Below are positions 8,663 through 60,463 of a stretch of DNA of 64,000 nt, one piece after another. Below the pieces are notes generated by a model. That model made no database searches, was not told the origin of the DNA, and saw only the letters and a program-made list of their open reading frames with translations. This DNA comes from Azolla caroliniana (lineage: Eukaryota > Plantae > Polypodiophyta): assembly GCA_043228905.1 (NCBI GenBank), contig JBHGNT010000011.1, positions 4,836,001 to 4,900,000 on the forward strand, given 5' to 3'. The position numbers and the translations under genes are program-made. Position 1 is the first letter of the stretch, and every line of letters starts with the position of its first letter.

Positions 8663-10480
8663 TATAACCGAAGAGCTAGTCGGCTACACCGATGCCGATT
8701 GGGCCGGCGATGCATCGGATCGCAGATCCACCTCCGGCTATATGTTTTCCCATGGTAACACAGTTGTTGCGTAGAGCAGCAAAAAGCAGCCAACAGTGGC
8801 CCTTTCGAGCACTTAGGCTGAATACCGCAACGCTATCGTTGCCACCTATGAAGCCATTTGGCTTCAGTGACTGCTGCAAGACCTGCGTGTGGATCGAGGT
8901 GCCAACCCCGATCTTGATCTACTGCGATAACATAAGGAGCATGTAGCTCACCAAGAACCCCGTATTCCATGCTTGCACGAAGCACATAGAAGTGCACTAC
9001 CACTTCGTGCGTGAGCGTGTCATGAGCGGGAAGTCGAACTTCGGTATGTTCATACGGATCGGCAAGTTTCCGACATCTTCACCAAACCGCTCGGTTCACC
9101 AAATGATGTTGCGAAGATTCGCGCGTGCGTGTGCTACTCGAGCGACCACCGGGGTCTTGGACTGGGGAGGATGTTCGCGGAATTATCGAAGAGATGACGA
9201 TCAATGTAAGATTAGACGGAATTTGTTCACTTGAGAAGAAGAAAGCTTGTACACTTGAGAAGTAGAAAATAATGAAGAAGATAAAGACAAATATAATTAT
9301 ATTGATGATAATGGTGTTGGTGATATCACATATTGAGCCCCCCTTACACAAGCCCAACTAGAGGCTTTTATAGGTCTTTCCATGCTTGTGACATGCACAA
9401 AACCATGAGCTAAAACCATGGTTTTGTGCACACGGTTTTGCTTATGTCATGCACAAACCATGGGTTTAAAACCATGATTTTGTGCACATGGTTTTCTATG
9501 GTTGTTTCGTCTATAATTTGTATATGAAAAGGAAATACATAAAATCTACACTATATGATAGTTGTCCTAGTGGTAAGGCAATTATCTTGTATCTTAGAGG
9601 TGCAAGGTTCAATCCTTGCTCGCACCCCTCTGTATGAACTCAAGTGCCACTAGGCCTTAGGAGGCTTATTTGCTAAGTGTATGTGCAATGTTGCACATCC
9701 TTGGTTTATTCGTCTCACTCGGTTTCACACCGTAGCCGAAAATCATCACGACAACGTGCAGCACTTCACCGAAATGCTTGGTGTTCAGCATCTCGACGTG
9801 CCACTCTTGAGGGGGAGAATGGGCAAAGACACCGGAATGGGCAAAGGCAAAGAAATTGTCGATTGCGTCGGTGAGGGAAGAATCGACAAAGGGAGAGACA
9901 AGAAGAAGAAGGCCAAGACCCGGACATGGTCGATTGTGGTGAAGGGCCTAGAACCGGAAGACGAATCGGGATTGATTGATTCAGAAAAGAGCTGGAACGA
10001 ATAAGAGACAACTGATTCGGTTCAACAGACGGATTCAGAAGAACCGGATCAATTCAAGGCCAAGAGGATGAGAAGGTAGAGAAAGTCGACGACAACACAA
10101 AGGACTCGGCGAATCGGCAAGCGCCGAAGTCACAAGAACGAGGGAGCTGAATTGGGCCTGTTGAGCAGACAATCCGACAGCGGAGGTCGAGGTGCGTAGA
10201 ATCAGAAGGGGCGCGGCAAACAGGACCGAACTGGACGAGGAGCGCGAGTGAGGCTGAGTGATGCCAGAAGGAGCCGGGTGGAAGAACCGACTACCATGGA
10301 GACTGACACTACGATCCGACCTCAACTTGATCTTGAGGGGGAGTGTTGAGCGGCAAGCTCAACCGGATCTGGATCGGCAAAATAAGCCTGAGCCGGATCG
10401 GTGAGCCGGTGAACCGGGGAACCTGCTAGCCGGATCCAGCAGTAACCGGAAGAGTAGTAGTAGCCTAGACTTCTAGGTAA
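8663..10480 (+). mobile_element. Ty1/copia 3' fragment (RNaseH, charged 3' extension, PPT, partial 3' LTR from 10344), interrupted at ~9092-9753
   Basis: [23 protein letters not shown] and DIFTKPLG motifs; gagggggag|TGTTGAG junction; LTR similar to 62418-62790. Confidence 0.85.
9092..9753 (-). mobile_element. Isolated LTR (9107-9753) with remnant tRNA-Trp PBS, non-chromovirus Gypsy-type
   Basis: Termini TGTTGCGAAGAT...ATCATCACGACA resemble the 59444-60463 LTR. cggttcacca lies just outside the LTR; TATA at ~9365-9373. Confidence 0.7.
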
Positions 10481-11304
10481 TTAATGAATCAACATAGGTT
10501 ATAGATGTCATTGATGGAACATGGTAAGCCCATATTCATCTGTGCGTCCGTAAGGGCTAGGGATGTAACGAGGTATGGGTGGAGAAAGACCCGAAAAGCA
10601 AGGGCCGAGCCTGCTTAGATAAGAGTACGTGACCTGACTTTTTGAATCAAATTGAGTTGAAAGGTGGTAAAGTGGCACAAACTTTAATGCGGCTCAGATT
10701 GCGGAAAGAATTGAATGCTGGAATTTCGAAATTCCGTTGGTAAAATTGGACCCTCCGGAAGCAGGGGGAGTCAATGCGGCGCCGAAAAGTAGCAAGGAAA
10801 GCCTACCGTGGAATGCTGGTACTATGGCGAGAAAGGCCACAGGGAGAGCGAGTGTTGGAAGAAACGCACCGATTCAGAGAAAATCACATCCGGCTCCGGA
10901 CAGACCAAACAAGGAAATCGGCAATGATTGCACTATGCCGAGGGCTCCGAACAAGCCGAAAATGGATCGGGCCCAACCTTCGTAATGAAGCACAAGGCCA
11001 ATTCGATGATACTGAATACCTCGAAACCAAACGAGGTGTGGTATGTTAACTGCGGAGTGTCAAATCATATGACGAGTCACGAGGAATGGTTCTCGTACTT
11101 GGAGAAACCGGAAAAGCAAGGAGTGATTGAAACTTGAGACGACACTCTGCATACCATTGAACATGTCGATGAAGTTCCCCTCAGCCACGTTAGGCAGAAA
11201 GGGAAACTCATGGACGTGCTACACGTCCCGACAATAACAAAGAACCTAGTGTCGGTCGGACAGATCGTCGACTAGGGGATGCAAGTTTGATTCACGCATC
11301 TCGG

Positions 11305-11356
11305 TGTCGAGAATTGAGAATAAGGGAGAGAAAGATAAGATGACGATAGAAGGTAT

Positions 11357-11411
<55 letters not shown>

Positions 11412-14400
11412 ACACTAGAAATGGAAAGAGAGTTTATATTATAAGAGAGAGCAAGGATTACAAAGAGTAGGCTAAAGGGCTACAAACTGGTGTTGAACCG
11501 AATGAGTTGTGATGAATGAATAGATACCTATTTATAGGTCCTTATGGAGTATTCTAGAATGTTCTAGAATGTTTTAGATATTTATGATGTTGACTATAAT
11601 CATGGAATATCCTAGAATGTTCTAGAATACTCTAAATATCTTGTAATAACTAATAATACATTTATTATAACTATACATCATATATGTTATTATAATGGTT
11701 AAAGGTGTAACATATAGACCAAGACGTCTTGGGCTCGAATCCTTATAAGGCTAGAATGTATGTCTTCATGACATTATTCCCCCCTTTTCGACGACGAGTT
11801 CCACGAGTCGGAAGAAAAGATTTCGGACTTGGCATATGGGGATATTTGTTGTGAAAAGCAGCAACTATTTCGGAGGCATTAGCAAGATTCTCGAGAGGTT
11901 CCCATGTTCGATCATTAGGTGTATATCCTAACCAGTCAACCAAATAATACAGTTTGTTGCGAACGATCTTGGAGTCGAGAATGGCAGCAACTTCATATTC
12001 GGAGCCATACGAAACTTCGATTGGAGGTGGGGGAGATGTAAGACGGCCTGGAATAGAGCTGGTTGTGTACGGCTCCAAAAGTGAAACATGGAAGACCTGG
12101 TGAAGATCAAGGCGAAATGCCACATCATTGATCTTACCAGATATCACATATGGGCCAAAACGTTGATAATCCGATTTTTAGCAAGGTCAATGGGTTGTTT
12201 TAATGCGACCTTGTAAAAGCCATACTTGATCTCCCACTTGAAACGTAGTTGATGAATCACGTCAATGACGGTCGGAAACCTTCTTTTGAGTGTTTTGAGC
12301 ATCACATAAATGGTCCAAAAGGATATCTTGAACTTCTTGGAGTCAGGGGAGCCGATCTTTAGCTGCCGGGTTTGTCAGGAGTTTGAGATGTTCAAGCATA
12401 GTCCAACGAGGATGGTACCCAATGTTTGCAAAAAATGGGGAATATCTAGTAGAAGAATGTTCTGAGTTGTTGTAAACAAATTCCGCCAAATGTAATAGAT
12501 CAACCCAATCATCTTGTTGATAGTTGACAAAACAATGAAGATATTGTTCTATTGTTTGGTTGGTGCGCTCACTCTGTCCGTTAGTTTCTGGATGGTAGCC
12601 GGAAGAGAGTTTGCAAGAAGTATGTAAGAGTTGGACCATGTGCCGCCAAAATTTTGAGATGAACTGGGGACCTCGATCATTGATAATATCATCAGGAAGA
12701 CCATGAAGCCGAAACACCTCTCGCATGAGTAACTTGGCTGTCTCTTGGCTCGTAATGGCCTTTGTGCAAGGATGAAAATGTGCCATCTTGGTAAAACGAT
12801 CTACTACTGTGAGAATAGAATCAAAACCCTTGGAAGCTGGTAGATTCATAATGAAGTTCAATGAAATAGATTTCCATGGACTCTTAGGAATAGGCATTGG
12901 ATGTAATAACCCATATCGATGATGTCGAGGTTTTTTGGATTGGCAACATGTATCACAACTACGAACATAATCCGTAACAAAATGGCGAAGTCGTGGCTAC
13001 CAATACCTTTGAGAAATTAATGCCAAAGTCTTGTGGATGCCGAAATGTCCAGCCATTGGTGTGTCATGACATTGTTGCAAGATTTGGCATTGAGAAGGAC
13101 CATTAGGCACATATAAGAGATTTTGTTGAAAAAGTAAATCATCATGCCAATTGAACTGGTTGTAGTCTTGACGAGGATTTTGAGATTGTGAACAAGAAAC
13201 AAGATCTGGGATAATATGGTTCAGAATGTCTTGGGTGAATTCATCAGTCTCAATATGCTCCGAATGGAGTCCAGAAGATTTGAATCCCCGGATGTGTTTA
13301 TAGCGTGAAATGCCATTAGTCGTAGACGGTTAGGACCGAAGAGGATTTGCTTTTGATTTTCAAGTGCGACCTCTCCTGGTTAAAGTTACATATATGAACG
13401 CCGAGATAAAGCATCTGCTTTTCCTTGTTGCGTCCTAGGGCGATATAGAATTACGAAATCAAAACGAGTTAAGAACTGCGCCCAACGAGCTTGTTGATGA
13501 CTCAAGACTCGAGCACTTTGGAAGTACGTTAGATTTTTGTGATAATTATAGACAATGATTTGTTGAGACGAACCCTCCAAAAAATGATGCCATTGTTGAA
13601 AAGAATCCACAATGGCAAAAAGTTCTTTGTCGTGAATCTCATAGTTGATTTCTGCAGCTTCGAATTTCCGTGAATGAAAAGCCACAGGGTGTAGTTGGCC
13701 ATCATTGCTAATCTGGGATAATACGCTTCCTAGTGTGAAGTCGGATGCATCAGCTTCGAGTATAAAGCGCTTCAATGGATCAACATGCATCAAAATTGGT
13801 GCAGATGTAAATGCTTGCTTTAATCCTTCAAATGCAGAGTTTGCATTTATACTCCACACAAATGGTCGATTCTTTTGTGTCAGTTGAGTGAGGGGCAATA
13901 CGATCTTTGAATAATCTTTGATGAATTTGCGATAAAAGTTTGCGAACCCCAAAAAACATTGTACATCTTGCACAGACTGTGGTGTTTGCCAATCCAAAAC
14001 TGTTTGAACCTTTGCTAGATCCATAGAGATGCCATGTGAAGAGACTATGTACCTCAAAAATTCCACTTGACGTTGGTCAAAATTGCAGTTCTCCAATTTT
14101 GCATAGAGACCATATTCACGCAACCGTTGCAAAGCTTGTCGAACGTGTATATCATGATCCTCTTGAGTTTTTGAGTAGATCAAGATATCATCTAGGTAAA
14201 CTATGACGAAAATATCAAGGAAATCTCGAAAAATGTCATTCGCCATATGTTGGAAAACTGTTGGTGCATTAGTGAGACCAAATGGCATCATTGTATACTC
14301 AAATCGCGAGTACGGAAAGCAGTTTTCCATTCATCCCCAGGATGAATTTGAACAAGATTGTAAGCACCTCGAAGATCTAACTTTATGAAATACTTAGCTC

Positions 14401-17024
14401 CACTGAGGTGTTCCAAAAGGCTCAAAATCAATGGTAGAGCATATCGGTTTTGAATAGTTACTTTATTCAATCCTCGATAATCCACGAACAAGCGCAACGA
14501 ACCATCTTTCTTTATAACGAAAAATATGGGTGCACCGGCAGGAGATCTTGAATGTTGGATAAACCCATTTGCCAAGTTCTCATCGATATATTCTCGAAGA
14601 ACCTCTAGCTCCGTGGGCGAAAGGTTATAAATTGGCCCCCATGGAGGCTCTTTTCCGGGATGCAAATCAATCAGGCAATCAAATGGTCGATGCTCTGGTA
14701 GTCTATTGGCCTTCACCTTATCAAACACATCGGAGAATTCTATATATTTCTTCGGTAGTTGGACCCCCGATTCTTGTGAGCTCGATGTGGGAGTTGCTAA
14801 AACTGCAAACACCAACATGTCTTCCTTCCGTCCTTCCTCACGTAACTAATATATAGAGATTGTCGAAATCTTTTGGAATATCATATCCTTTCTTGGAGTT
14901 TTAAGAGACTCAGACTATATTGTGAGCTCTTCAATGGTTCTTTTTCTCCAATCAATAGTTGGGTTATGTAGCTCAAACCATGGAAGATCAAGAACTAGGG
15001 AGTGCTCTGGACTACTAATGATGTTGAATGAGATGACACTAGCCAAATTGCATAGGACTACACGAATTGGTTTAGACTCTTCAACTATATCACCTGATGC
15101 TATGGGGTGTCCATCAATGACTTCGACAGAAACTGGGCTTGGGAGCTTATGCAACTGAATATTATGCATTACAGCAAACTCACGATCCATGAAACAAGAG
15201 TTGGCTCCAGAGTCTAAGAGGGTTGAAGCTGGGACTTGATGGCACCTAAATGTGTTAAGCTCAACTTGTGCAGAGAAAACTCGACTAACTTGACCGGATG
15301 AAATGGAACCACAACTAGGGATGAACGTTACATGCCTAGGGCTGTCCAACCAAATGGCTCCGATTTTTGCCAAACTTACTCATTTAACACATCATCTAAT
15401 TGGCTCAAGACATCAAATGTATTTTTATAACAGGGACTACTAGGCCTACTTGGGTTACGAGAAGGCGGGGCAGAAATTGAGATGGGATTGTCATGAGCAC
15501 TTACTTGGTTAACTTGTCGTCGTGGTTTATGTGGACAATTCACAACAATATGCCCTAGACCACCACAATAGAGGCATAGACAATTCGTTCGCCGTCGTTG
15601 CTTTTCAACATCTGGTAATGGTCCTCGACGTCGTGTTGTCTCGGTGTCCATTGGAGTAGGGCCTTCAACCACACTTGACTTTGATACTTGGGGTGGAGTT
15701 GCGACCACCGAAGCATATGTTTTTTGTTGGTCGGAACTATAACATTTGTTGGCGCTCAGAATGCCGCTCAAATAAGTGATTCTCACATCACACGGCCCGG
15801 TTTACTGCTTCAGTAAGAGATTATGGATCATCAAGAAAGGTAAGAAGTAAATCCTTCACATCATTGCGTAGAACTTCACTAAATTGGTCCAGTAATGCCG
15901 CCTCGTCCCATGGAATATCACATGCTAGAAGGCGAAAATCTGCAGCATAAGCGGAAGCAGGACGATCTCCTTGTCGTAATTGTCGAATTTTGTTTATTGC
16001 GGTCCTCATACTATCGGTGTCTCCAATGTTGTCTTAGAACTCATTAATAAACCTTTCAAAATCTTCTAATAATTGTGAGTGCTTCTCTAGGAGTGGTGCA
16101 AACCACGCTAATGTGGTACCCGTTAACAAGGTACCAACTAGTCCCACACGAGCAACATGAGTTGGGTAACGTCTAGGATGCAATTTAATCACAAGCCGTA
16201 CTTGATTTTAAAATTCACGAAATTGAGACATTGTGCAATCAAACTTGGCCGGCAGACTAATCTTGGGTTCCTTCGGCGAGGTTTGAACTTCTGACACTTA
16301 TCGTTGCAATAGAGTACTCTCCAATTGATGCACCCGTTGAGATAATTCTTCATATTGTTGTACTTTCTCAACACTTACTTGTTGTAGGTCTCCCAACAAT
16401 TTTTTATTTTCATGCTCCAGTGCCATGAATTTGGTTGTTAGCATGTCGAGCTTGGAGAGAACACGCATATATTCTTGCTTGCTGTTGAACTCCATAGTTA
16501 CGAGAGAAAACTGCTAGATTTGCTTGAATAAGGTTAAGATAAGAAGAAGTTGGGGAAGAAGAAAAGAGAGATATTCGGTTCAAACTGTCGAGACTTGAGA
16601 GTAGGAGAGAGAAAGATAAGATTACGATAGAAGGTATACATAGAGAGAGAGAGAGAGAGACAACACTAGAAATGGAAAGAGAGTTTATATTATAAGAGAG
16701 AGCAAGGATTACAAAGAGTAGGCTAAAGAGCTACAAACTGGTGTTGAACTGAATGAGTTGTGATGAATGAATAGACACCTATTTATAGGTCCTTATGGAG
16801 TATTCTAGAATGTTCTAGAATATTTTAGATATTTATGATATTTACTATAATCATGGAATATCCTAGAATATTCTAGAATACTCTAAATATCTTGTAATAA
16901 CTAATAATACATTTATTATAATTATACATCATATATGTTATTATAATGGTTAAAGGTCTAACATATAGACCAAGATGTCTTGGGCTCGAACCTTTGTAAG
17001 GCCAAAATGTATGTCTTCATGACA
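11305..17024 (-). mobile_element. Full-length degenerate Ty3/gypsy chromovirus A (Tcn1/Tf1-like, self-priming)
   Basis: LTRs 11305-11773 and 16586-17024 (TG...CA) with 5-bp TSD CTCGG. Gag CCHC, PR LLDSGA, RT YLDD, RNaseH, integrase and chromodomain (YEVAAILD...YLVDWLGY...TWEP). PPT at 11774-11788. Confidence 0.95.
11552..11569. promoter_or_regulatory. Heat-shock element in Gypsy A LTR U3
   Basis: TTCtaGAAtgTTCtaGAA, four alternating nGAAn units ~15 bp upstream of the TATA (11529-11536). A second cluster lies at ~11610-11637, and both recur in the 5' LTR. Confidence 0.65.
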
Positions 17025-24869: not shown

Positions 24870-26077
24870 TAAATCTATCGATCAAGCCCGCAAGAGTAGT
24901 GTAAATCATCTGAGTACGTTATCTCTTCCATGAGTTATTTATTTGATTCAATATTGTGTCCGAGAGAAACTGACGCTATCTTCCATAGTCATAAATGTGT
25001 CATGGGTTTATGTCAAGATTGTGGCCCTACTAGATTTAGGTGGTGTCCAAATGAATTGAGTACTGAAATATTGATCTTTGTGAAGTTATTTGAGTCAGTG
25101 AACACCAATTTCGAAGGAAAGGTGTGTAAAAGAAAGGATCTAGTTCGGAAGATGCTTAAACCAAGGGATTTGGTGTCTCTGTTATCCTGCTATAACAGGT
25201 TTGGAGATGAGATGGAATTTTTTTGGGTCTGACCATGGTAAAGGTGAACATGATGGTGCAGGGACTATTATAAAGCGGGCACTTACCCATGAACAACTAA
25301 AGACAGATGGTGTGCACATTAATTGTGCATCACATGTAGTTGAATTTTTAAGAACAAATATGTCAACAAGTGCAACATGTGTTTATTCCTCGCAAATCCA
25401 AGATATCAAACGTGAATTTTGGGAAGTGAAGATAGATGAAGTAAATAGGGAGAAGACCTGGGAGTGCCAAGGAATTCCCGAATTGCGATCTCTACATGTT
25501 GTTCGGGGTTATTTCCAGGTTGGATGGTCATTGTATTGCGGTTAGAGAATTGACTTGTTTTTGCTTCCATTGTGTGCAGGGAAATTGGAGATATTGTCTA
25601 AACAAAGCATACATTTAGAATTGGGAGTATCACACTCTGAATAATAAGGAAGCAGTTGATGGAGAAACAGGGCAGAATGCTGACTTCACATATGAGGGAC
25701 TTGGAGATACTTTGAGTGATGTCCTGAACATTGGGGATAACTTCGCTGTAAATGTTGAAGAAGGCAATTCAGAGGGTGCTGATTTCTATATATTGAAGTG
25801 CATGGTTAGTAAACAGTGTGCAAGGCCGAATATTGTAGATGCATGGGGAAATTTTGTATCTGCCGGGACATTCTACATCGAAGGCATTTTTTATGCAAAA
25901 CTAGAGTCTACGAATATGTGTACAGGCTGTTAGAAGACAAACCAACGGCGTACATGTACTCTCATTTGGTCAGGTGCATCAACGTCCCAATGTCAGAATA
26001 CTATAGCTGCTAATTTTATACATTGTTGGTGCTAATGTGTATGAATGTATTTACAATAGTATGCCATGGAATTTGTA
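24870..26077 (+). pseudogene. Disabled transposase core of copy 2
   Basis: Matches 55-1680 but has a ~416-bp deletion at ~25182 removing the DFAENY and SDGA motifs, plus frameshifts and stops. Confidence 0.9.
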
Positions 26078-34677: not shown

Positions 34678-37600
34678 TGTCAGAAACAATACTAAGACAG
34701 AGAAGGAATTAGTACTAAGAGAGGTGAAGAACTCTCGAGAGAAGGAAAGAGTGAGTGAGAGGGAGGGAGAGAGAGATCGAGAGAGAGAGAGAGAGTGATG
34801 ATAAGAAAAGATATATATTATGTGAAGAAAATGTACAGTAGCTAGGAGGCTTAAGACTGGCGTTGAACCGATTTGGTTCGAAATAATGCCTTGTGCCTCC
34901 TTTTATAGTGTTCTAAGGAATACTCCTGAAGTTTCTAGAATGTTCTAGAGAAATATGGAATATACATCAATTTTCTATAATAAAACATAAATGAAAATAA
35001 TATTCTATGTATTACAATGTATAGTCTAATGGTCAAGAGCTCGACCCATGTAGAATAAGGTCATGGGTTCGAGTCTTGCCATATCATGACACTATCCCCC
35101 CTTTAAAACGATGAGTGTAATGAGTCGTTTTGGATTGAGGACCCAGTTTGTCTGGATATTGACGATGGAAGTCTTCAAGAAGAGCACGAGCATTGGTGAC
35201 ATTCTCTATCGGTTCCCAAGTACGCTCGTTGGGACTATATCCTAGCTAATCGACTAGATAGTAGAGCTTGTTGCAAACAAGCTTGGAATCAAGGATGGCG
35301 GCAACCTCGTACTCAGGTCCATCTTCAAGCTTGATCGGGGGTGGAGACTGTGTAATACGTCCTGGGATGGTGCTCTCTTGATAGGGTTCGAGGAGAGAAC
35401 TATGAAACACCGGATGTATCCGAAGTTGTGGAGGTAGATCAAGACGAAAAGCAACATCATTAATCTTTCCTATAATACGGAAAGGACCTAATCGCCGATA
35501 ATCCAACTTCTCGCATGGGCGAGTGGTCTTGATGTGTCGTCGGAGTAGCCATACCCGATCTCCAATGTTAAAACTAGATGGGAGTCGATGACGATCCGCA
35601 TAAACCTTGTGTGTTTGTTGAGCTTGTTGGAGGTGAGTAGATACATCCGCTTGTATCTTGCGTAACCTCTCCAAACGATCTTCTGCGCAAGGATTTGTGG
35701 ACACCTCTGGGGTTTCAAGTACACACCACCGGGGGTGACATCCCGTATAAGCATAAAATGGTGTAACTTTAGTGGATGTGTGGATAGAGTTGTTATAGGC
35801 AAATTCGGTGAAGTGGAGAATATCTGCCCAGTCATCCTGATGATAGATGAGAAAGCACCGCAGATACTGCTCCAGCGTTTGATTGGTTCGTTCGGCTTGG
35901 CCATCGGTTTGGGGGTGGTAACCGAAGGAGAGGTTACAAGTGACCTTGAGCATGTTAAAAAGGTGCTTCCAGAATTTTGACACGAACTGGGGTCCACAGT
36001 CGCTAATGATACTATCGGGAAGTCCATGATGCCGACATACTTCACGCATGACAATTTCAGCAGTGTCTTCACTGGAGATCTCCTTAGTACATGGCAAGAA
36101 ATGAGCCATCTTCGTATATCGATCGACCACCGTTAGAATCGCATTGAACCCCTTAGAGACTGGAAGATCTGTGATGAAGTCTAGAGCAATGGATTGCCAC
36201 GACTTGCTTGGAATTGGTAATGGTTCTAATAAACCATATGGATGATGCCTTGGCATTTTCGCTCTGCATCATGTATCACAAGTCTGAACAAAATCCTCGA
36301 CAAATTGTTGCATACAGGGCCACCAGAATGATCGTTGTACTAAATGTAATGTTTTAGTACTACCAAAATGCCCAGCTGTATATGTGTCATGACAGTTTTG
36401 TACTACTAGAAGGCGGCAAGAACCATTAGGAACATACAAAAGTTCTTTAAAGAAGAGTAATCCATCATGGTATTTGAATTGCCAATAGTCCGTACCTGGC
36501 GGTTGCGACTGTGAACACGACGCGCGAGAGGGATCAATTTGTGCTAGTATAGCTTGGCGAACACATCTGTCTTCAAGTCTTCGCGTATGGTATCGATAAC
36601 GCGGGAATCCATGGGCATGTCAAAGATCTGTGTTGCCTGTAGTCGTGCCGGTCCCAAGATGACTTGTTTTTGGTTATCGAAAGTTGGCTCGCCGGGACGG
36701 GGTGCTAGATACGAACGCCGTGATAATGCATTTGCCTTCCCTTGGTGCTTCCCCGGACAATATGTAATTTTGAAGTCGAAAGGCGTGAGGAAGTGGGCCC
36801 ACCGAGCTTGACGTCGAGCGTCCTAAAAGTAGGCAAGGTTTTTGTGGTCACTGAATACGGTGACTTGATGACAAGATCCCTCTAGAAAATGTCTCCATTG
36901 CGTAAAAGAATCCACTATTGCCAATAGCTTCTTATCATGAATTTCGTAGTTGATTTCGGCGGTGTCAAACTTGCGTGAGTGAAAAGCCACAGGATGTAGC
37001 TTCTCATCATTCCCCTGTTGTGACAGAATGCTCCCCAATGCAAAATCTGATGCGACAGCTTCGATAATGAATGGTTTTTCCGGATCGACATGAGCTAGAA
37101 TTGGAGCCGATGTAAATGCCTGAAAGCCATGTCCGTTTCTTCAGACCAGATGAACGGTTGTCCCTTCCTGGTAAGTTGTGTGAGAGGTAGAACGATCTTT
37201 GAGTAATCTTGTATGAACTTCCGGTAAAAATTGGCAAAGCCTAGGAAGCATTGCACATCCCGCACCGAACGCGGAGTCTGTCATTCTACCACCGTTTTGA
37301 CCTTAGCTGAGTCCATGGAGATGCCTTCTGACTAAATGATGTACCCGAGAAATTCCACTTGGTTGCACCCGAAACTACATTTTTCCAGCTTTGCATACAG
37401 ACCATGTTCTCGAAGTCGTTTTAGTACTAATAGTACATGAGAATCATGTTCTTCTTGGGTCTTTGAATAAACCAGTAGATCATCCAAATAGATGATCAAA
37501 CAATCATCCAATAGATCTCGGAATATATCATTAGCCATGTGTTGGAAGACTGTCGGCGCATTAGTGAGGCCGAACGGCATGACCGTATACTCGAAGTGCC

Positions 37601-40298
37601 CATATCTGGTGCGAAACGCGGTCTTCCATTCGTCTTCTGGTCGGATCCGTACGAGGTTATATGCTCCCTGTAAGTCGATCTTCGTGAAGAACCTGGCACC
37701 ATTGATCCGTTCTAAAAGACTTGAGATAAGGGGAAGAGCATACCTATTCCTAATTGTAACCTTATTCAGGCCACGGTAATCTACAACGAGACGAAGCGAT
37801 CCATCCTTTTTCTTGACGAAGAAAATGGGCGTGCCAGCTGGAGATTTCGAATGCCGAATGAAACCATTTTCCAAATTCTCCTCTATATAGGCCCGAAGGA
37901 CTTCCAGCTCGGTTGGTGACAAATTGTAGATCGGTTCCCATGGCGGCTCTTTTCCCGGTTGTAAATCGATGGGGCAATCGTACGGTCGATGATGAGGAAG
38001 TGTGTTGGCTTGTACTTTATCGAACACATCGACGTAATGACAATACTTCTCGGGAAGTTGAACGGTGGATTCTTCTTTAGTGGTGCTGGAGGGGTTTACT
38101 GATATTGCAAAGAGGAACATTTCTTCCTTGCGCCCTTCTTTACGCAACTGACATAGCGAAATGGTTGCCATCTTCTGAGTTGACCCTTAGGTTTGTCGAC
38201 ACCGGATTTTTCTTGTTCTCCAATCTATGTCTGGGTTATGGAACTCGAACCACGGTAATCCTAAAACTATGGGATGTTCTGGGATACTAATAATATTAAA
38301 TGATACTACACATGCTAAGTTATCTAGGACAATATTAATGGGCTCTGATTCTTCTATGATATTTCCGGAAGCAATGGGACGTCCATCAATGACTACTACA
38401 GAGGCTGGACACTGGAGTTTTCTTAGGGATATCTTATGAGCTTGAGCAAATTTCTTATCCATAAAGCAAGAGTTAGCTCCGGAATCTAGGAGTGCTAGGA
38501 CATGTACTGGAGGGGTACTTTTAGTACTAACTATTACTTGGGCTACGAACACATCACTAACTTGCTTAGAGGGAATGGAACCACTAATGGGTTGCACAGA
38601 TCTAGGGTTGTCCAACCAAACGGCTCCTATTTTGGCTGGACTTAGACGTTTAACTCTTCTTCTAACTGACTAAGGACATCAAATCTGTTCGCTAGATCTG
38701 GGCTATTAGTACTATTAGGACTATCAGATATCCCTACTGAAATAGGCTTGGGTTTAGTACAATTAGAACTAGCGACTATTTGGTTTACATGTCTTCTTGG
38801 CTTATGGGGGCAATTTATTGCAATATGTCTTGGTCCACCACAGTAAAGACATAGTCGATTTGTACGGCGTCGCTGCTTTTCTTCTTCGGATAATGGCCCT
38901 CGACGACGTGTAGTGTCAATCTCCATCGGAGTCGAAGTATTCACTAGAGGCGCGTTATATGACTCCCTTGGAAAAGGTCTTGATACCACTGAGGCGTAGG
39001 TGGGCTCTGATCTTGCCCTCGGCATTTGTAGCTTTCGTTCCAAACGTCGCTCAAAGAGGCGGTTGTCACATCTCACCGCGCGACTGATTGCTTCTGTTAA
39101 GGACTTTGGCTCTTTGGGGAAGGTCAAGAGTAAATCCTTGACGTCGTTGCGTAAACCATAATGGAATTGCTCCATCAACGCTTGATCATCCCAAGGGATA
39201 TCGACGGCGAGTAGGCGAAAATCTACAGCGTATGCAGAGGCTGGACTGTCACCTTGGCGTAATCGCCGAATTTTGTTGATTGCGGTCCTGATGCTGTCAG
39301 TATCTCCGAAACATGCTTTAAACTCACCTAGAAACTCTTCAAAATTGTTGAGTAACGGAGATTCCTTTTCTAATAGTGGAGCGAACAATGCCAACGCTGA
39401 GCCACTTAACAAAGTGCCTACTAAACCCACTCGCGATGCATCGGTGGGATATCGGGAAGGATGCATTTGAATAACTAATCATACCTGGTTAAGGAACCCT
39501 CTAAACTGTGATCGCATTCCATCGAACTTTGTGGGAAGTCCAATCTTGGGTTCTTTATGAATCCCTTGTGTTCCGGGCCCTTGTTGTTGCATCGCTACGA
39601 TGGTGGCTTCGAGTTGTTGGACGCGTAACGCAAGTTCCCCATGCTGTTGTTGCATTTGCTGCTTTTCTAAGGAGATTTGCTGAAGATCCCCCAACAACCA
39701 TTGGTTTTCTTGTTCCAAAGCATGGAACTTCTCTTTCAAACATTGAAATTCCGAAAAAACAGACTGATATTATTCAGCGCTAACAGTGGCCATGGGATGA
39801 AAGAAAAGAGGAATAAGAGATTAGTAGGAAATGAGAGAGACAGAAGGTAGGAAAATCGGTTCAAACTGTCAGAAATAGTACTAAGACAGAGAAGGAATTA
39901 GTACTAAAAGAAGTATTAGTACTAAGAGAGGTGAAGAACTCTCAAGAGAAGGAAAGAGTGAGTGAGAGGGAGGGAGAGAGAGATCGAGAGAGAGAGAGAG
40001 AGTGATGATAAGAAAAGATACATATTATGTGAAGAAAATGTACAGTAGTTAGGAGGCTTAAGACTGGCGTTGAACCGATTTGGTTCGAAATAATGCCTTG
40101 TGCCTCCTTTTATAGTGTTCTAAGAAATACTCTTGAAGTTTCTAGAATGTTCCAGAGAAATCTGGAATATACATCAATTTTCTATAATAAAACATAAATG
40201 AAAATAATATTCTACGTATTACAATGTATAGTCTAATGGTGAAGAGCTTGACCCATGTAGCATAAGGTCATGGGTTTGAGTCTTGCCATATCATGACA
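34678..40298 (-). mobile_element. Full-length degenerate Ty3/gypsy chromovirus B (Tcn1/Tf1-like, self-priming)
   Basis: LTRs 34678-35091 and 39867-40298 with TSD TTACG; gag, PR, RT (YLDD), RNaseH, integrase with GPF motif and chromodomain. Confidence 0.95.
34928..34950. promoter_or_regulatory. Heat-shock element in Gypsy B LTR U3
   Basis: GAAgtTTCtaGAAtgTTCtaGAg, ~20 bp upstream of the TATA (34901-34908). Confidence 0.65.
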
Positions 40299-41612: not shown

Positions 41613-41648
<36 letters not shown>

Positions 41649-41873: not shown

Positions 41874-41910
<37 letters not shown>

Positions 41911-42082
41911 GTGTGTGTGTGTGTACATATTGTATTGTAATTTGTATGTATGTGTTGTGTAAATGTGTATGTATGTCAGTGTATATAGGTATGTGTGTAT
42001 GTATGTACATATTGTATTGTATTGTATTAATTTCGTTTATTGTATATATTGTATGTATTGCATGTGCGTATGATTGTATACG

Positions 42083-42132
<50 letters not shown>

Positions 42133-42500: not shown

Positions 42501-42531
<31 letters not shown>

Positions 42532-43658: not shown

Positions 43659-43710
<52 letters not shown>

Positions 43711-46567
43711 CAATGTATAAATGTACATGATTCAATGTATATGGATGTGTGATTGTAATATGTACATAATATCTATGTATATATCTAATGTATGTGTGTG
43801 TATGTAGCAATGTATAAATGTACATATGTGTATGCATATGTAATATATGTATGTGTATGCATATATCCATATGTAATTTATCTGTGTATGTACGTGTATT
43901 CATATATCCATATGACGATGCACATGATTCGATGTGTATGGATGTGTGATTGTAATATGTGCATAATATTTATGTATATATCTAATGTATGTATATGTAG
44001 CAATGTATAAATGAATATAGGTATGTCTATGTACAAATGTACATATGTATATGCATATGTAATGTATGTATGTGTATGCATATATCCATATGTAATTTAT
44101 CCATGTATGTATGTGTATTCATATCTCCATATGACAATGTACATGATTCAATGTGTATGGATGTGTGATTGTAATATGTGCATAATATTTATGTATATAT
44201 CTAATGTATGTATATGCAGCAATGTATAAATGAATATAGATATGTCTATGTACAAATGTACATATGTGTATGCATATGTAATGTATGTATGTGTATGCAT
44301 ATATCCATATGTAATTTATCTATGTATGTATGTGTATTCATATATCCATATGACAATGTACATGATTCAATGTGTATGGATGTGTGATTGTAATATGTGC
44401 ATATTATTTATGTATATATCTAATGTATGTATATGTAGCAATGTATAAATGAATATAGGTATGTCTATGTACAAATGTACATATGTGTATGCATATGTAA
44501 TGAATGTATGTGTGTGTGTGTGTGTTAGGTGTATGCATATATCCATATGTCAATGTACATGACTCAATGTATATGAATGTGTGATTGTAATATATGCATA
44601 TGCAATGTATGTATGTACATGCATGAATGTACATATGTGTATTATGTATATATCTAATATGTAATGTATGTATGTTTGTATGTGTATAGTGTATGGCATA
44701 TGTATATATGCATACATGAGTGTGTGGATGTTTGTTCGTAATATTTATGTATATATGTATGTATTGTAGTTTGTGATGATATGTATGTACATATGTAACG
44801 TACGTATATATGTGTATGTAACGTATTTATGTGTATGCAAGTATGTAATGTATGTATATATGTGTATGGATGTATGCTTGTAAAACTTATAACATTGTAG
44901 GCATATGTACGTATATATATGGTGATATGTGGAATGTGTATGTATGTATGTGTATGCATATATGTATCTGTCAATATACATGATTCAATGAGTATGAATG
45001 TGTTTGTAATATGTGCATAAGATGTATGTATATATCCAATGTATGTATATGTATGTGTGTATGTGGTCATATGTATGTAAATGTATGAATGTATGTATGC
45101 GTATATATGTAATGTATTTATGTATGTATATTTTTGGGATATTTTCATGTTTAGTATGTATATGGTTCGTATATGGATGTATGTTTGTAATATGTACGTA
45201 ATATGCATGTATATATGCAATGCATGTCTAAGTATACATATACCTAATGTGTGTGTGTATGTAAGTTTTGTGGTTTGTATGGTCCAGTATAATCTATATA
45301 TATGGTGATATGTGGAATATGTATTTACATATGTAATATATCTATATATGTATGTGTAAATTTGTATATTGTGTAATAGGTATGGATTATATGCTATGTA
45401 ATATCTAATTATTTTATGTGTGTGTGCACGTGTATATATATGTAACTTGTTTTTAAGTATGAAGATTTGTATACATATAATATCTAGTCTTAGGTATTAA
45501 TATGTATGTATGTGTGTGTATATATATAATATGTAATTTATTTTTCTGTGTTTTGTATGTATATATGCATTTGTGTATGTATGAATGTCATATATAATTT
45601 TATTGTATGTATTATGTTACATGTATATATGTATGTCAATATATATGGTTGAAACTTGATTCTAATATGTATGCAGTATGTAATGCATGTATGTATGTGT
45701 ATGTACATATTTACATATGGTAATATATATTTGTACATATATTTATGTTTATACATATTCATGGATGTAATGTTTGAATGTACAGGTATATACACATGTG
45801 TGATGTGTGATATATGAATGTAGGTATATATGCATGTATGTGGTATGCATGTGTGATGTGTGTTATGTTCGTGTGTGTATGTATGTATGCATATATTGTA
45901 TTGTATTGTATGTATGGAATGTGTGTATATGTGTATGTATGTGTATATACATAATATGTACTTTATTTTTTTGTGTTTGGTTTGTATATTTGCATTTGTA
46001 TATAATAATATATGTGTGTAATATGTAATATATAAAATATGTTTGTGAGAATGTGTATGTATATATGTAATATGTAATTTTTATGTATGTATTATGTATA
46101 CTCCTATGTCAATATATATGGCCGATTCTAATATGTATATAGTATGTAATGCATGTATGTATGTGTAAGTACATATTTACATATGGTAATACATATTTCT
46201 ACATATATTTATGTTTAGTCAATATGCATGTATAAATGGGTGTAATGTATGTATATACATATTCATGGATGTAATGTTTGAATGTAGGTATATGCATGTA
46301 TATGTATGTATGTATATATATATGCTTCTCCAAATTTGAGTATTGTTTGTATAATATATTCTTTACTATCTCATTGAAATATCTAATATTTCATGGGCTT
46401 ATATAAATTTTTTTTCCAGCATAATTGATAATACCCTTATGTAAATATATTTTCAAATCTTTATTAATACCCTTATATATATATATTCTTTATCTCATTG
46501 ATTAATTTAAACCCCTTTTGATGAACTCACGTGCTATCATACAAGTTTTGACAGTGAAGCCCCCAGG
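40570..46567. mobile_element. Non-autonomous TIR DNA transposon (~6 kb) with 8-bp TSD; interior mostly TG/TA microsatellite-like
   Basis: TSD CTCCTTCC (40562-69, 46568-75) interrupts copia gag. Imperfect ~47-bp ungapped TIRs CC(C/T)GGGG.CT.CACT...CACGTG.GTTCAT. Confidence 0.8.
41430..46330. repeat. Degenerate (TG)/(TA)/(TATG) low-complexity tract with ~219-bp tandem units at ~43790-44500
   Basis: Composition seen directly; near-identical units begin at ~43792, 44011 and 44230. Confidence 0.9.
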
Positions 46568-52540: not shown

Positions 52541-54666
52541 GCCATTATACTCGAAATGACCGTAGCGCGTTCTGAGGGAAGTTTTCCATTCATCTCCAGG
52601 TTTGATTCGTACCAAATTGTATGCTCCCCGTTGTCGTGTGGTTTTTCACACACGATATTAAAACTAGTAAAATAAGTATTTAAGATTAGCTTAATGGATT
52701 GATATGGGAAGATAGATATATTCAAGAGCTTCATAACGCATTTTTCTACATATAAAATGGACAACTACATATCAAGTTAGGTGGACCTGAAGTTTGAGAA
52801 GATAAGGAAAATACAATTTTGAAATATCCCACATAGATAAAACTAAAGGAGCCAGCTATATCAGCAGATTGAGAACCAAAATTTTTCATCTATGTGTTAA
52901 GAGCACAAAAGAAATAGTTGGGCTTGGGCCACTTTTGTCTAGAAGGACATATGTGGCTAAGTTGCTCGAACCGGTCGGTGATGGAACTCAAACCGGCCGG
53001 TGATAGTACTGAAAACTGAATGGAGCCGGCAACCGAAAACCGGACGAATCCGACAACTGGCAACCAGGCGGATTCGGCAACTGGAAACCGGACAGAGCCG
53101 GCGATCGGACGGATCTAGCAATCGATGACCAGATGGATTTGACAACCGGAGACCGGGCGGATCCAGCAACCGAAAACCGGACGGAGCCGGCGACCGACAA
53201 CCGGATGGAGCCAACAACTGGATGGAACCGACGATCGAACCGGAATCGGATGACGACAGACCGGAACCGAACTGGACGGAGCCGGTGACCGGACGGATCC
53301 GGCAACCAATGACCGGATGGATTCGGCAATCAGAGACCGGGTGGATCCGGCGACCAGAGACCGGACGAAACTGGGAACCGGATGGAACTCGCGATCGAAC
53401 CGGAACCAGACTAGACAAACCCAGACCGGATGGATCAAAGCATGCACTAAAATTTACGCATTATTGGATCATGCGGTGAATTAAAGTAAAGTAAAGAAAA
53501 CTAAAGTAAAGGCCATGTGGACAGTCGCATGCAATTAAAAGAAAAAGCCATGCAACTAAAAATGGATGCAACTAAAAGTGGGCATGCAAAAGTAACATTG
53601 GAGGCTATGATCAAGGGGGAACTCCATAATATTCCAATTTCTCTCTCCATTTTTATTTTCTTTTCCTTCTTAGCTCCCTTATCTTATCGAAGCCATAACA
53701 CTCAAAATCCCTAATTTTCCCTACGGAAGCCATATCTCTAAAAATCCCTAATTTTTCTTTTCTATTAATCTCAGTAAACCTAAAACTTCTGAATCCCAAT
53801 CTTGGGACATATTGTAATTTCTTTTCCTTTGTTAATGAAAATTATTAAATTTCTTATTTCCGTTAATTGTTAAAAATATAAAAGCACGAATGTGATATCC
53901 TCAAGTCGGAGGCCCCGGGGTCCTGCCTCAAGTTCATGTATCCTCGTCGTATTTTCACGACACTGTAGCTCAATCTTCGAGAAGATCCGCCTAGTTCAGA
54001 GTCGATCCAACAACTTTGGGATGAGAGGCAGTGGGTAGCGGTTGCGAACAATAATCTTGTTTAGACCCCGATAGTCGATCAAAGGCGTAAGGAGCCATCT
54101 TTCTTTCTCACGAACAAAATAGGAGCTCCTGCTAGTGATATTCAGGGTTGAATAAAACCCTTTTCAAGGTTCTCATCGAGATAAGTTCGGAGTGCTTGGA
54201 ATTCTGGTTCCGACAACCCATAAATTGGGCCAAAGGGAGGACTGGGACCTTCTTGCAGATCAATTGAACAGTGGCAGTGTTGATGCTCAGGCAAGTGATC
54301 AACATTCTTTTTCTCAAACACGTCCCTAAAGTGTTCATACTTGGACGATAATGAGCCAGTAGCTGTCCTCATTGGATTGCTCGACTCAGAGGCACTATGC
54401 ATAATTTTCTTTGTTGTGACTAGGATGTGAGCATCCACCCTTGAGCTAATTCCTACTTTAATGGGAGGGTGAACACCTACTATAACATGAGATACTGCTT
54501 GCACCTCCGAGTTGGTTTGGAAGAAAGTAATTGAGTGATTGCGCCAATCAAGAAGTGGATTTTGTGCCTTCAACCAAGACAAACCAAGGATGACCGGATG
54601 TCGTGGCGAAGTGATAACATAAATGTAAAAACGAAGGTCCGGAAGCGTCAGACAAACCGGCTCCAC
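52540..54666 (-). pseudogene. Tcn1-like Gypsy protease/RT fragment split by a solo LTR
   Basis: ILGLSWL, PIYGLS and RNRYPLPLI...FSKIEL|[26 protein letters not shown] read across the insertion. Confidence 0.8.
52632..53962 (+). mobile_element. Solo LTR (~1.33 kb) with TGTCGTG...CACGACA termini and 4-bp TSD
   Basis: Flanks CCGT/CTGT; the right end is the reverse-complement homologue of the 59444 LTR start; internal GC-rich ~21-bp repeats at 52965-53435. Confidence 0.75.
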
Positions 54667-58551: not shown

Positions 58552-60463
58552 TGTTGTGAAGATCCGTCACCAGGCGTGGATCGTGAGGCGGAACCACCGG
58601 GGTTCTGGACCGGAAGGATTTGAAGTCGGTACAAGCTTTAGTGAGGAAGTATTTAAGATAGATTAGGAAAGAGAGAAATTGAGATTAAACGCTTGACATT
58701 AGTTTGAGAGAGATTGATTGAATTTTCTTCTTCTTAATTTCATCACTAAAAGAGCCTAACCCTTCTTCTTTTTCATCCCTTCTTTTATAGATGCTCTCAT
58801 GCATATGATGCATGTGAGGGTACAAGACATGCATAAAATTCATGTTTGCCATTTGGCGCTCATGTATTACATGTGGTGCATGATAACCATGCCACTCATT
58901 TTAGCTCTCATGTATTACATGTGGTGCATGATAACCATGCCACTCATTTTAGCTCTCATGTATGAGAATTTACATGATAGAAATATAAATTCAACTAAAT
59001 GTCATGGCTTAGTGGTAACCTTACTGACTCTTAACTAGGAGGTGCAAGGTTTGAATCCTTACTTGCCCTCCTTGTATATATATATGTGATATATATATTT
59101 ATTTATTTATTTATTAATTTGGTTGCCCGACGCTGGATGCCGCCGGTTTCCATCTGTTTCCATCGGTTGCCGCCTCGTCGGATGCCGGATCACCGGCTCC
59201 CTTCTATATGTATCAAGGAACTTCGTAACATTCCTTCCAACAAATTGACCCTCAAGCTCTATGACACAGTCGACGTCCTTCTCCACGCTCGCATCGTTGT
59301 CTCGAGATCTCATCATTAGTTCAACGATTAGGATCATCGTTTCGAGCTCTCCCGCTTGGTTGCTTGTGGATGCCATCTCCAAGTATTAATCTCAGCTTGA
59401 TCCTTCCTACCGACTCTTTCACGTCGGGTTCACCACTTTATTATGTCGTGAAGATCCGTCCCTAGGCATGGATCGTAAGGCGGAACCCCCGAGGTTCTGG
59501 ACCGGAAGGATTCGAAGTCGGTACAAGCTTTAGTGAGGAAGTATTTAAGATAGATTGGGAAAGAGAGAAATTGAGATTAAACGCTTGACTTTAGATTGAG
59601 AGAGATTGATTGAATTTCCTTCTTCTTAATTTCATCACCAAAAGAGCCTAACCCTTATTCTTTTTCATCCCTTCTTTTATAGATGTTGTCATGCATATGA
59701 TGCATGTGAGGGTACAAGACATGCATAAAATGCATGTTTGCCATTTGGAGCTCATGTATTACATGTGGTGCATGATAACCATGTCACTCATTTTAGCTCT
59801 CATGTATGAGAATTTACATGATAGAAATATAAATTCAACTAAATGTCATGGCTTATTGGTAACCTTACTGACTCTTAATTAGGAGGTGCAAGGTTCGAAT
59901 CCTCACTTTCCCTCCTTTTGTATATATATGTGATATATTTATTTATTTATTTATTTATTTGGTTGTCGGATGCCGGATGCCGTCGGTTTCCATCGGTTGC
60001 CGCCTCGTCGGATGCCAATACCGCTGGATCACCGGCTCCGTCGGATGCCGATCGCCGATTACGGTCCAATTCTGTTTTGGTTGGCCAAAACCCTTACGAG
60101 TGGGCTAGGCCATCTCCACTCTTAGTTCAATTTACCTTGAACTCTCTATGTTCCAGTCATAAACACAAAGATAATAACTTTTGCTCTACCTTATATATGA
60201 TGAGAGCCTTATTTGTCTTGTCTATGTGGGATATCTCACAATTTTCTCTTTTTCTTTCACAACTTCTTACCCACATAAGTTGACACTTAAATGTCCGTTT
60301 CTTATGTAATAAAGTGCATCTTTTTTTAAGATCTTTGTCTTTTGTCCTAAGATATTAAACTTACTTAGAATTAGTATATTCACTATTATTGATTTATATG
60401 ATTGACACTTGATTTCATATGTCTTATGTGATTTTCACACCATTGCCGAAAATCTTCACGACA
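58552..60463 (-). mobile_element. Internally deleted LTR retrotransposon with tRNA-Trp PBS and 4-bp TSD
   Basis: 5' LTR 59444-60463 and partial 3' LTR 58552-~59200. PBS TGGTGAACCCGACGTGAA (59435-59418) is complementary to the plant tRNA-Trp 3' end. Gag start at ~59380; flanks ACAG/ACGG. Confidence 0.85.
59842..59912 (+). promoter_or_regulatory. tRNA-like Pol III promoter module in LTR U3 (also 58998-59068)
   Basis: A-box TGGCTTA(G/T)TGG, stem-loop CTGA-CTCTTAA-TTAG, and B-box GGTTCGAATCC 44 nt downstream; no intact acceptor stem. Confidence 0.65.

Follow-up and report, generated by a model that had tools for sequence, protein, structure and literature searches.

Antisense tRNA-type promoter boxes in the LTRs of coding chromoviruses and of a likely Trp-primed lineage in Azolla caroliniana

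Among retrotransposons whose LTRs carry tRNA-like parts, the Helenus TRIMs include one plant case, from Selaginella (Kojima 2024, PMC10886601). The same account states that tRNA-like parts occur in "not a few LTRs" of Repbase and analyzes only TRIMs, so coding cases may sit undescribed in that database; the available portion of the account does not give the orientation of the tRNA-like parts of Helenus. In yeasts, B-box sites at tDNAs and ETC loci act as barriers or insulators, more strongly when TFIIIB is bound (PMC3395662). The Tcn1 clade of chromoviruses has been reported, among plants, from mosses and club mosses, and the available portions of two accounts of this clade mention nothing tRNA-like in the LTR and no Pol III feature there (PMC6317226; PMC2864245). 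Nor did we find a published description of an antisense tRNA-type promoter module in the LTRs of coding elements.

We analyzed a 64-kb window of A. caroliniana DNA, by which we mean the whole stretch, for A- and B-box pairs in LTRs. All five of the pairs reported in an initial annotation are present on the plus strand, antisense to minus-strand LTRs, and we add two copies that had been overlooked in the partner 5′ LTRs of elements A and B. The window thus holds seven module copies, and all seven are antisense to the PBS, pol and PPT (Table 1). The distance from TATA to A box is 113 to 214 nt, a wider range than the 115 to 190 first proposed.

Table 1. Elements and modules in the 64-kb window (positions counted from its first letter)
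Feature	Position	Strand	Remarks
Element A 3′ LTR	11305..11773	-	TG...CA; TSD CCGAG on both element sides
Element A internal region	11774..16585	-	Ty3/gypsy PR-RT-RH-INT (Pfam matches), split into several ORFs
Element A 5′ LTR	16586..17024	-	followed by self-priming site complementary to start of R
Heat-shock-element-like TTCnnGAAnnTTC arrays, LTR A	11552..11630 (approximate limits)	-	between module and TATA
A module, 3′ LTR	11688-11741	+	A-to-B start spacing 44; 32 nt from LTR 5′ end
A module, 5′ LTR	16939-16992	+	second A-family copy
Element B 3′ LTR	34678..35091	-	TSD CGTAA; PPT directly upstream
Element B internal region	35092..39866	-	gag-PR-RT-INT with Tf2-type SH3
Element B 5′ LTR	39867..40298	-	followed by self-priming site complementary to start of R
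B module, 3′ LTR	35022-35075	+	spacing 44; 0 mismatches; 16 nt from LTR 5′ end
B module, 5′ LTR	40229-40282	+	second B-family copy; C56 decayed to T
Element C 5′ LTR	59444..60695	-	12-bp terminal inverted repeats; first ~230 bp tandemly duplicated, second start 60463
Element C PBS	59419..59435	-	8 nt beyond LTR
Element C second LTR copy	58552..59200	-	5′ part missing; 84% identical to 5′ LTR over 658 nt
C module, 5′ LTR	59849-59901	+	spacing 43
C module, second LTR copy	59005-59057	+	spacing 43; CTCTTAA loop; C56 decayed to T
Element D	9108..9753	-	solo LTR of C lineage; at end of Copia RNase H region
D module	9563-9615	+	spacing 43
Element E	52632..53962	+	solo LTR related to C (73% over 110 nt); no antisense module

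The window was searched with GGTTCRANNC for the B box and TRGYNNARYGG for the A box, at a spacing of 40 to 50 nt. Using an A motif that was picked after the sites were seen, we counted five sites with one mismatch or none, compared to a mean of 0.05 and a maximum of 1 in 100 local shuffles; B-positions with up to two mismatches numbered 10, compared to a mean of 1.13 and a maximum of 6. None of the three outcomes that the initial annotation named as refuting its claim (matches no commoner than in shuffled LTRs, no conservation in families, sporadic SINE insertions in single copies) was observed. A sequence profile made from 19 phage tRNAs ranked the C and D modules first in the window (59850, E 6e-6; 59003, E 8e-6; 9561, E 9e-4), followed by positions 35058 (E 0.047) and 11693 (E 0.076), and the best phage-record matches of the C module in the 5′ LTR were annotated tRNA-Lys genes (86% over 36 nt, E 0.02). 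ARAGORN at default settings called no tRNA gene in the window, and with lowered thresholds it returned dozens to hundreds of background calls; no Rfam tRNA match was found in the window, in 58900-60000, or in positions 1860-2000 of the related locus L009. Three other candidates were set aside. The Lys(CUU)-like feature at 52893-52907, inside element E, is a real hairpin at chance level, with no surrounding boxes and no profile match, and we no longer count it with the modules; a weak sense box pair in element E (52687-52737) is likewise at chance level; and a weak sense profile match at 16274-16328 (E 0.043) falls in the start of the element A gag.

Elements A and B are self-priming, Tcn1-like chromoviruses of 5.6 to 5.7 kb with gag-pol domains, TATA and a self-priming R region. 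Their priming site is complementary to R, with no tRNA PBS, and the R complement of this site co-varies in five related loci (L009, L010, L012, L014 and L042). The two LTRs of element A are identical at 418 of 439 aligned bases. The internal regions of A and B share 65% identity over 4.5 kb, and homology extends to their LTRs (68% over 219 nt, E 4e-11). The reading frame of element B ends inside the chromodomain, which is whole in close relatives (PF00385 in close homologs). In protein look-ups, named matches from angiosperms stood at about 47% or lower. In both elements the module is the outermost component of U3, lying outside heat-shock-like arrays and TATA. A further chromovirus fragment is present at 63498-63998; we looked for a relative of it and found none.

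Elements C and D probably belong to a second, Trp-primed LTR lineage; solo LTR E is related to C. The PBS of element C presumably matches tRNA-Trp. Element C is inserted in a Copia RT, probably with a 4-bp TSD (CCGT/CTGT), and looks like the internally deleted product of an element with LTRs of >1 kb. Element D has no PBS of its own and its TSD is not clean; the sequence TGGTGAACC, considered as its Trp PBS, belongs to the flanking Copia RNase H region. The LTRs of C and D have termini in common, and their modules are 59 to 62% identical between the boxes, with the C module about 560 nt and the D module 138 nt inside the LTR, neither at the LTR edge. We found no coding partner for C, D or E in viral contigs or related loci, and no coding region. 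Priming by tRNA-Trp is listed for non-chromoviruses (PMC6317226).

Because the LTRs of A and B are homologous and those of C and D share termini, there are two lineages here, rather than the four otherwise unrelated LTR families of the initial annotation. The modules are split between self-priming Tcn1-like chromoviruses (A and B) and what is likely a Trp-primed lineage (C and D); the earlier division into self-priming and Trp-primed carriers stands for A and B and, given its presumed Trp PBS, may apply to C; Trp priming is not supported for D, which has no PBS of its own. When a model of the A/B type was run on the C and D modules, scores of 7 to 13 bits were no higher than those of unrelated real tRNAs (up to 19). 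Such scores are consistent with, and no proof of, separate origins. The proposed convergent capture is compatible with this, although the window would hold at most two captures (A with B, C with D) and not four.

We examined conservation of the boxes in related chromovirus LTRs clustered at 80% identity, giving 26 ENA and 9 JGI clusters. An antisense pair with three mismatches or fewer was detected in 21 of the 26 ENA clusters, compared to means of 5.2 to 6.0 mismatches in shuffles; these counts are not independent events because the rows are related. The pair had tRNA spacing in 20 of the 21 and lay 16 to 63 nt from the LTR end. The other five ENA clusters exceeded three mismatches, a sense pair occurred in only one of 26, and no antisense pair was found in the nine JGI clusters. 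When 13 diverged representatives were anchored on the B box alone, an A box was recovered at offset 44, with a mean of 2.0 mismatches, whereas the 31 other offsets gave 3.7 to 7.1 mismatches and no fit. Across 22 representatives, B-box identity was 0.77, a value inflated by their selection on that box, and A-box identity was 0.57; the flanks gave 0.37 and 0.36, and integrase-end four-fold sites 0.39. Positions 43 to 48 are likewise conserved. Flanks and synonymous sites are close to saturation, yet the boxes persist: they are antisense, located in U3, fixed at the family level and more conserved than their flanks. The A-box G10 is retained in just 9 of 26. Among 46 modules anchored without the bases in question, CpG 56-57 reads CG in 24, CA in 20, TG in 1 and CC in 1, so that its decay runs one way only. 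Mutation of the B-box cytosine abolishes TFIIIC binding (PMC3395662).

Could the module be a neutral passenger, derived from an ancestral SINE or tRNA fragment that landed in an LTR? Helenus and Cassandra are proposed to have arisen by SINE insertion (PMC10886601), an (ATTT)n run follows the C module, and element E has no module. The modules do not behave as free or sporadic SINE insertions in single copies, as their LTR position is fixed in 21 of 26 clusters and, among the matches listed, 0 to 2% of aligned DNA contigs continue into unlike sequence; an ancestral SINE origin may nevertheless apply. Against neutrality, the boxes and their spacing persist next to flanks and four-fold sites near saturation, CpG decay is one-way, and in four sequencing runs no variant at ≥10% fell within 59882-59915 of the C module, compared to eight variable places between the boxes. 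For element B, none of the best 40 of 91 variant rows fell within 35055-35111. Box scores did not differ significantly between high- and low-coverage contigs (p 0.19). A passenger may explain the origin of the module, not its retention; for A and B this reading is largely refuted, and overall we consider it very unlikely.

The two boxes of the modules stand as far apart as in a tRNA gene, as in a Pol III type-2 promoter, and the shape of a tRNA has been lost. Cloverleaf pairing is 54.0% compared to 52.5% in shuffles, whereas real tRNAs reach 96.4% compared to 55.1%. A structural tRNA model lowered the scores of window modules to 18.2 and 16.5 bits from 22.2 and 22.6 by sequence alone, whereas it raised those of real tRNAs in locus L033 from 37 to 71 bits. 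No stem shows covariation. The anticodon loop is not fixed (T33 in 9/26, R37 in 8/26), and an anticodon base of the C module differs in most of the depth in three of four runs. Given conserved boxes, a lost cloverleaf, a variable anticodon and no fixed terminator, the module is a selected DNA element and not a tRNA, and is likely a TFIIIC/Pol III type-2 promoter.

Such a promoter might still be an active Pol III gene which, from the 3′ LTR, would produce RNA antisense to the U3 start, the PPT and the chromodomain end, and which would regulate the element or feed small-RNA pathways. This would suit an A box held at exact tRNA spacing, conservation extending to positions 43 to 48, the hairpins formed by module B (z near -5) and module D (z near -3), and the A/B-box Pol III units in U3 of foamy viruses (PMC3993851). 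However, the long hairpin that we considered as a feature common to the modules was rejected (mean z -0.93, 4/26 below -2, and 0 consensus pairs in RNAalifold), no fixed T4 terminator was found (the first T4 lies at +1 to +52 and is absent in 8 of 23), and a transcript from the 5′ LTR would enter arbitrary host DNA. We regard an active gene as unlikely.

Because the tRNA shape and the surrounding DNA have decayed while the boxes were kept, a host factor probably binds them. Landing in heterochromatin is generally ascribed to chromodomain-bearing elements. Our preferred reading, held with slightly less than even confidence, is that the backward boxes bind TFIIIC and keep the LTR enhancer and TATA open against surrounding heterochromatin. 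By analogy with known Pol III biology, TFIIIC would occupy the B box and, via the A box, place TFIIIB on the AT-rich DNA between module and enhancer; the complex could then form, at the outer U3 edge, a barrier or a nucleosome-free anchor. Each transposition would duplicate the module into both LTRs. With its backward orientation, Pol III, if recruited, would travel in the direction opposite to the Pol II promoter, and the genomic RNA would be spared a tRNA-like fold. Several observations weigh against a barrier. The cited barrier evidence comes from yeasts, not plants; the module is lacking in related elements (solo LTR E, all nine JGI clusters and the five ENA clusters of 26 that exceed three mismatches); the C and D modules are not at an LTR edge; and one subclade has a similar module inside pol, in frame in the PR-RT linker and not at a promoter edge. 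It is the B box that defines the barrier sites of PMC3395662, so the barrier model needs no A box, and A-box retention fits real transcription equally well.

Bound TFIIIC could instead act as a co-activator of the adjacent Pol II promoter, for example with heat shock factor. With a heat-shock-element motif taken from PMC3907296, we detected three three-unit matches in LTR A, compared to 0.00 in shuffles, and such arrays lie between module and TATA in 13 of 26 ENA representatives as well as in A and B (0/9 JGI); TFIIIC has also been described on SINEs near activated genes (PMC3744447). But the arrays are missing in the other 13 representatives and not seen in C and D, and the module-TATA distance is loose, which makes co-activation a distinctly improbable alternative to the barrier.

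The place of the A/B-type module, 16 to 63 nt from the integrase-bound U3 end, would also suit a landing pad or tether that guides insertion to a set distance upstream, whether of Pol III-targeting elements or of the element itself. We give this little weight, as no insertion lies upstream of the A box in any of the seven modules of the window, interrupted LTRs among related loci break at differing places (judged by eye), and there is no obvious selection on the element bearing such a pad. Proximity to the PPT and U3 end in A and B, together with conserved bases that coincide with the tRNA tertiary core, would likewise fit a sequence working at the RNA or cDNA stage, in strand transfer, PPT cleavage or integrase end recognition, with its likeness to Pol III boxes secondary. 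The stems lack covariation, the C module lies hundreds of bases from the end, and the module is missing in relatives that share the PPT and the TGTCATG start; a role at this stage is highly improbable.

Extending the barrier reading beyond the window, we propose as a possibility, and a rather doubtful one, that in seedless plants coding LTR elements acquired a tRNA promoter on three or more occasions (at the chromovirus U3 edge, in U3 of the Trp-primed lineage and in the PR-RT linker), always antisense, and retained it as a portable TFIIIC barrier for activity inside heterochromatin, seeding thousands of mobile TFIIIC sites. If so, TFIIIC barrier function, documented in yeasts, would extend to plants via a high-copy element, and LTRs would supply TFIIIC sites in large numbers. 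The B box at the U3 edge is conserved and can be mutated, which offers a direct handle on promoter escape from silencing, and the theme of Cassandra and Helenus is widened to a promoter unable to make the element RNA, in coding elements.

Among known systems, the yeast tDNA, ETC and IR B-box barriers are similar in placing TFIIIC-type sites beside Pol II promoters or at heterochromatin borders; here the boxes are known from sequence, they ride mobile elements rather than immobile host loci, and the 3′ B-box extension of ETC sites was not seen conserved (PMC3395662). The foamy-virus miRNA cassettes also place A/B-box units in U3 of an autonomous LTR element, but those cassettes have hairpins, terminators and demonstrated RNAs, whereas our modules have no conserved fold or terminator and, unlike the cassettes, the box spacing of a whole tRNA gene (PMC3993851). 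Elements A and B themselves resemble the Tcn1 clade in their Ty3/gypsy order, chromodomain in relatives, self-priming and 5-bp TSD (Neumann 2019, PMC6317226; Novikova 2010, PMC2864245). Like the Cassandra TRIM, they are plant elements with Pol III promoter sequence in the LTR that derives from a gene for a small RNA; Cassandra differs in being 5S-derived and non-autonomous, with a Pol III transcript that is the retrotransposition template (PMC10886601). They also resemble Helenus/TRIMp3, in which tRNA-derived LTR sequence is conserved around boxes A and B with no working tRNA; Helenus elements are, however, non-coding TRIMs of 311 to 1263 bp, compared to 5.6 to 5.7 kb for the coding elements A and B, and they are proposed to produce their own RNA from the Pol III promoter (PMC10886601). 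The modules described here belong to neither Helenus nor Cassandra, because they sit in coding elements and face away from the genomic RNA.

Elements A and B, two chromoviruses in what is nested LTR-retrotransposon DNA, have 5-bp TSDs, and the LTR pairs within each element are 95 to 96% identical. Downstream, their 5' LTRs adjoin sequence complementary to the beginning of R, which indicates self-priming. In Neumann 2019 (PMC6317226), self-priming distinguishes Tcn1 among plant chromoviruses, and this clade is recorded in mosses and club mosses, which makes a seedless plant the likely host. Across families (related loci L009, L010, L012, L014, and L042), the self-priming site and its R complement change together; for Tf1-type priming, this is clear-cut covariation in plants.

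The LTRs of C, D, and E form a separate lineage with terminal inverted repeats (12 bp) in common. Element C, which looks internally deleted, has a PBS that we take to be of the tRNA-Trp type; D and E are solo LTRs, and a search for a coding partner of this lineage found none. The TGGTGAACC sequence at D, a supposed Trp priming site, is flanking Copia RNase H. C (58552-60695) and E (52632-53962) are preceded by CCGT and followed by CTGT, and ACGT precedes D; probably the lineage makes a 4-bp TSD and prefers certain targets, or else the flank is conserved.

All five A/B-box pairs claimed by the initial annotation are confirmed at their stated positions; the partner LTRs of A and B add another two. 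It had assigned the pairs to four LTR families; because the A LTR is homologous to that of B, and C to D, there are two lineages, not four. A Lys-like hairpin at 52893, also pointed out there as a weaker case, lacks the boxes, and solo LTR E has no module. For the window scan, the A-box motif was what we assume to be the consensus. The B-box motif agrees with PMC3395662. At a spacing of 40 to 50 nt between box starts, five window sites matched the A/B consensus with no more than one mismatch, versus 0.05 in 100 local shuffles. As a motif-independent check, we took 19 tRNAs annotated in a single phage and made profiles from them. Its sequence profile, which somewhat favors C because the phage record was chosen by a BLAST match to its Lys-CTT tRNA, ranked C, C, and D highest (E 6e-6 to 9e-4), with the B module at E 0.047 and the A module at 0.076.

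Using the integrase end plus chromodomain as query, we found 326 relatives and kept the best 80, which correspond to 76 loci; of these, 61 come from 16 ENA assemblies and the other 15 from JGI. An LTR start carrying 130 nt or more was located in 58 of the 76; the remaining 18 were dropped, and the retained LTRs plus A and B formed 35 clusters at 80% identity. Among these loci from the best 80 of 326 relatives, an antisense pair with at most three mismatches occurred in 21 of 26 ENA-led clusters and 0 of 9 JGI clusters. Spacing was 43 or 44 in 20 ENA-led clusters, with the B box 16 to 63 nt from the LTR end; the sense-strand control gave at most three mismatches in 1 of 26, and shuffles averaged 5.2 to 6.0. 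By eye, the five ENA-led clusters without the pair appear deleted, interrupted, or decayed. A profile from 26 modules matched at the LTR in 50 of 61 ENA loci, 23 of which had supplied training rows, and in none of the 15 JGI loci. In an integrase tree of 58 of 60 rows (the midpoint root serves solely to draw it), 38 module rows belong to a 43-row branch (97/96); L052 and L066 bear the module but fall across the split, with JGI rows. Either the module predates the split and was lost in the JGI group, or it tracks the host.

We compared 22 representatives selected because their B box had no more than one mismatch; two of them are mis-anchored. Mean pairwise identity was 0.77 for the B box and 0.57 for the A box, with 0.47 between boxes, 0.37 and 0.36 for the two flanks, and 0.39 for integrase-end four-fold sites. 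In 13 hand-picked representatives of 70% clusters, the A box, which is outside the anchoring, fits at offset 44 only. Across 26 aligned modules, chosen as module-bearing, A14, R9, Y48, G53, T55, C56, R57, and A58 (tRNA positions) are invariant; G19 (25/26), G18 (24/26), and T8 (22/26) are largely kept, and G10 (9/26), T33 (9/26), and R37 (8/26) poorly. At CpG 56-57, 46 modules anchored without these bases have CG 24, CA 20, TG 1, and CC 1 (22 representatives: 10, 10, 1, and 1), a bias that may be a hint, not a p-value, as the rows are related. TG occurs in two of seven window copies, each with a CG partner LTR, as expected from decay after insertion. In contigs of four runs, the C module varies at eight places between boxes and three in the A box, with no variant places in 59882-59915. 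The module is a real, selected, clade-wide feature whose function we infer; it is probably a selected TFIIIC/Pol III promoter.

Cloverleaf pairs fill 54.0% of module cells; shuffles give 52.5%, and 101 of 500 reach the module value. For real tRNAs, the figures are 96.4% and, shuffled, 55.1%. The anticodon stem shows a slight excess in one script count (0.44 versus 0.37, 2/500) and is 38% paired in the aligned count. The tRNA closest to the C module is tRNA-Lys(CTT), yet for three of four runs most of the depth has another base at one anticodon position. With pairing near shuffle level and this base variable, we rejected the module as a tRNA. We also rejected a shared RNA fold, since RNAalifold gave zero pairs and z fell below -2 in only 4 of 26 chromovirus modules; the B and D modules fold as hairpins. 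Of 23 modules, 8 have no T4; in the others the first one falls anywhere from +1 to +52. That the module makes a functional antisense RNA seems unlikely.

The conserved bases would be those read by TFIIIC on DNA, and genomic RNA cannot come from the module. In A and B it is outermost in U3, beyond heat-shock-like arrays and the TATA box. A candidate TFIIIC site at this edge might act as a barrier or open-chromatin element, as in yeasts, where TFIIIC-type sites are barriers and insulators (PMC3395662); we put such a role at slightly below an even chance. The arrays, whose motif form follows PMC3907296, occur in 13 of 26 ENA representatives and 0 of 9 JGI. Their presence in U3 of A, B, and related LTR clusters suggests heat-inducible chromoviruses. 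Among Copia elements, ONSEN is heat inducible. A co-activator site is a still less likely reading of the module than antisense RNA, and a neutral passenger, a landing pad, or a role in reverse transcription jointly take what probability remains.

The chromovirus-module profile gives the C and D modules 7 to 13 bits (unrelated real tRNAs reach 19), and between-box identity across the two lineages is 28 to 41%, so separate captures would fit. Within the PR-RT linker, inside the open pol frame of one subclade, there is a further antisense pair, in frame, which has a spacing of 42 and comes in three variants; with at most two mismatches, it occurs in 5 of 31 rows scanned and is not present in A or B. 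For one variant, the structural tRNA model scores 21 bits versus 14 for sequence alone.

Coordinates of elements, arrays, and PR-RT-linker box pairs
Feature	Location	Strand	Description
Element A	window 11305-17024	-	Ty3/gypsy with PR, RT, RH, INT domains
Element B	window 34678-40298	-	Ty3/gypsy with PR, RT, RH, INT domains
Heat-shock-element-like arrays, A	window 11552-11630, 16800-16880		U3
Heat-shock-element-like arrays, B	window 34925-34950		U3
PR-RT-linker pair	L010 2954-3005	antisense	
PR-RT-linker pair	L012 about 999-1070, 6323-6389	antisense	
PR-RT-linker pair	L013 4947-5018	antisense	
PR-RT-linker pair	L015 506-577	antisense	
PR-RT-linker pair	L016 3220-3291	antisense	

Elsewhere, window 63020-63998 holds a piece of another chromovirus with SH3 and chromodomain; it shares just 32% identity with B, and its LTR is without the module. 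Two copies of a large unclassified repeat (56-8387 and 24871-31467; 84 to 97% identity) contain tandem arrays of TAGCTAATTAGC; their ORF at 2327-3466 gives a match to the NIF phosphatase family (E 1e-7). Low-complexity DNA rich in (TG)/(TATG), with 219-bp repeats, fills about 5 kb at window 41450-46400; its many Rfam microRNA matches score under the gathering threshold. On one short contig, locus L033 has two intact host tRNA genes (Asn-GTT, 552-627; Thr-AGT, 831-906) about 300 nt from the chromovirus integrase end.

Our literature search, largely over open-access papers, returned no account of a tRNA promoter lying antisense in the LTRs of coding plant elements. Kojima 2024 (PMC10886601) remarks that "not a few" LTRs in Repbase contain tRNA-like segments, with only TRIMs studied; the A and B modules here lie in coding elements. 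As a probable Pol III promoter, the module extends the known theme of such promoters inside LTRs.
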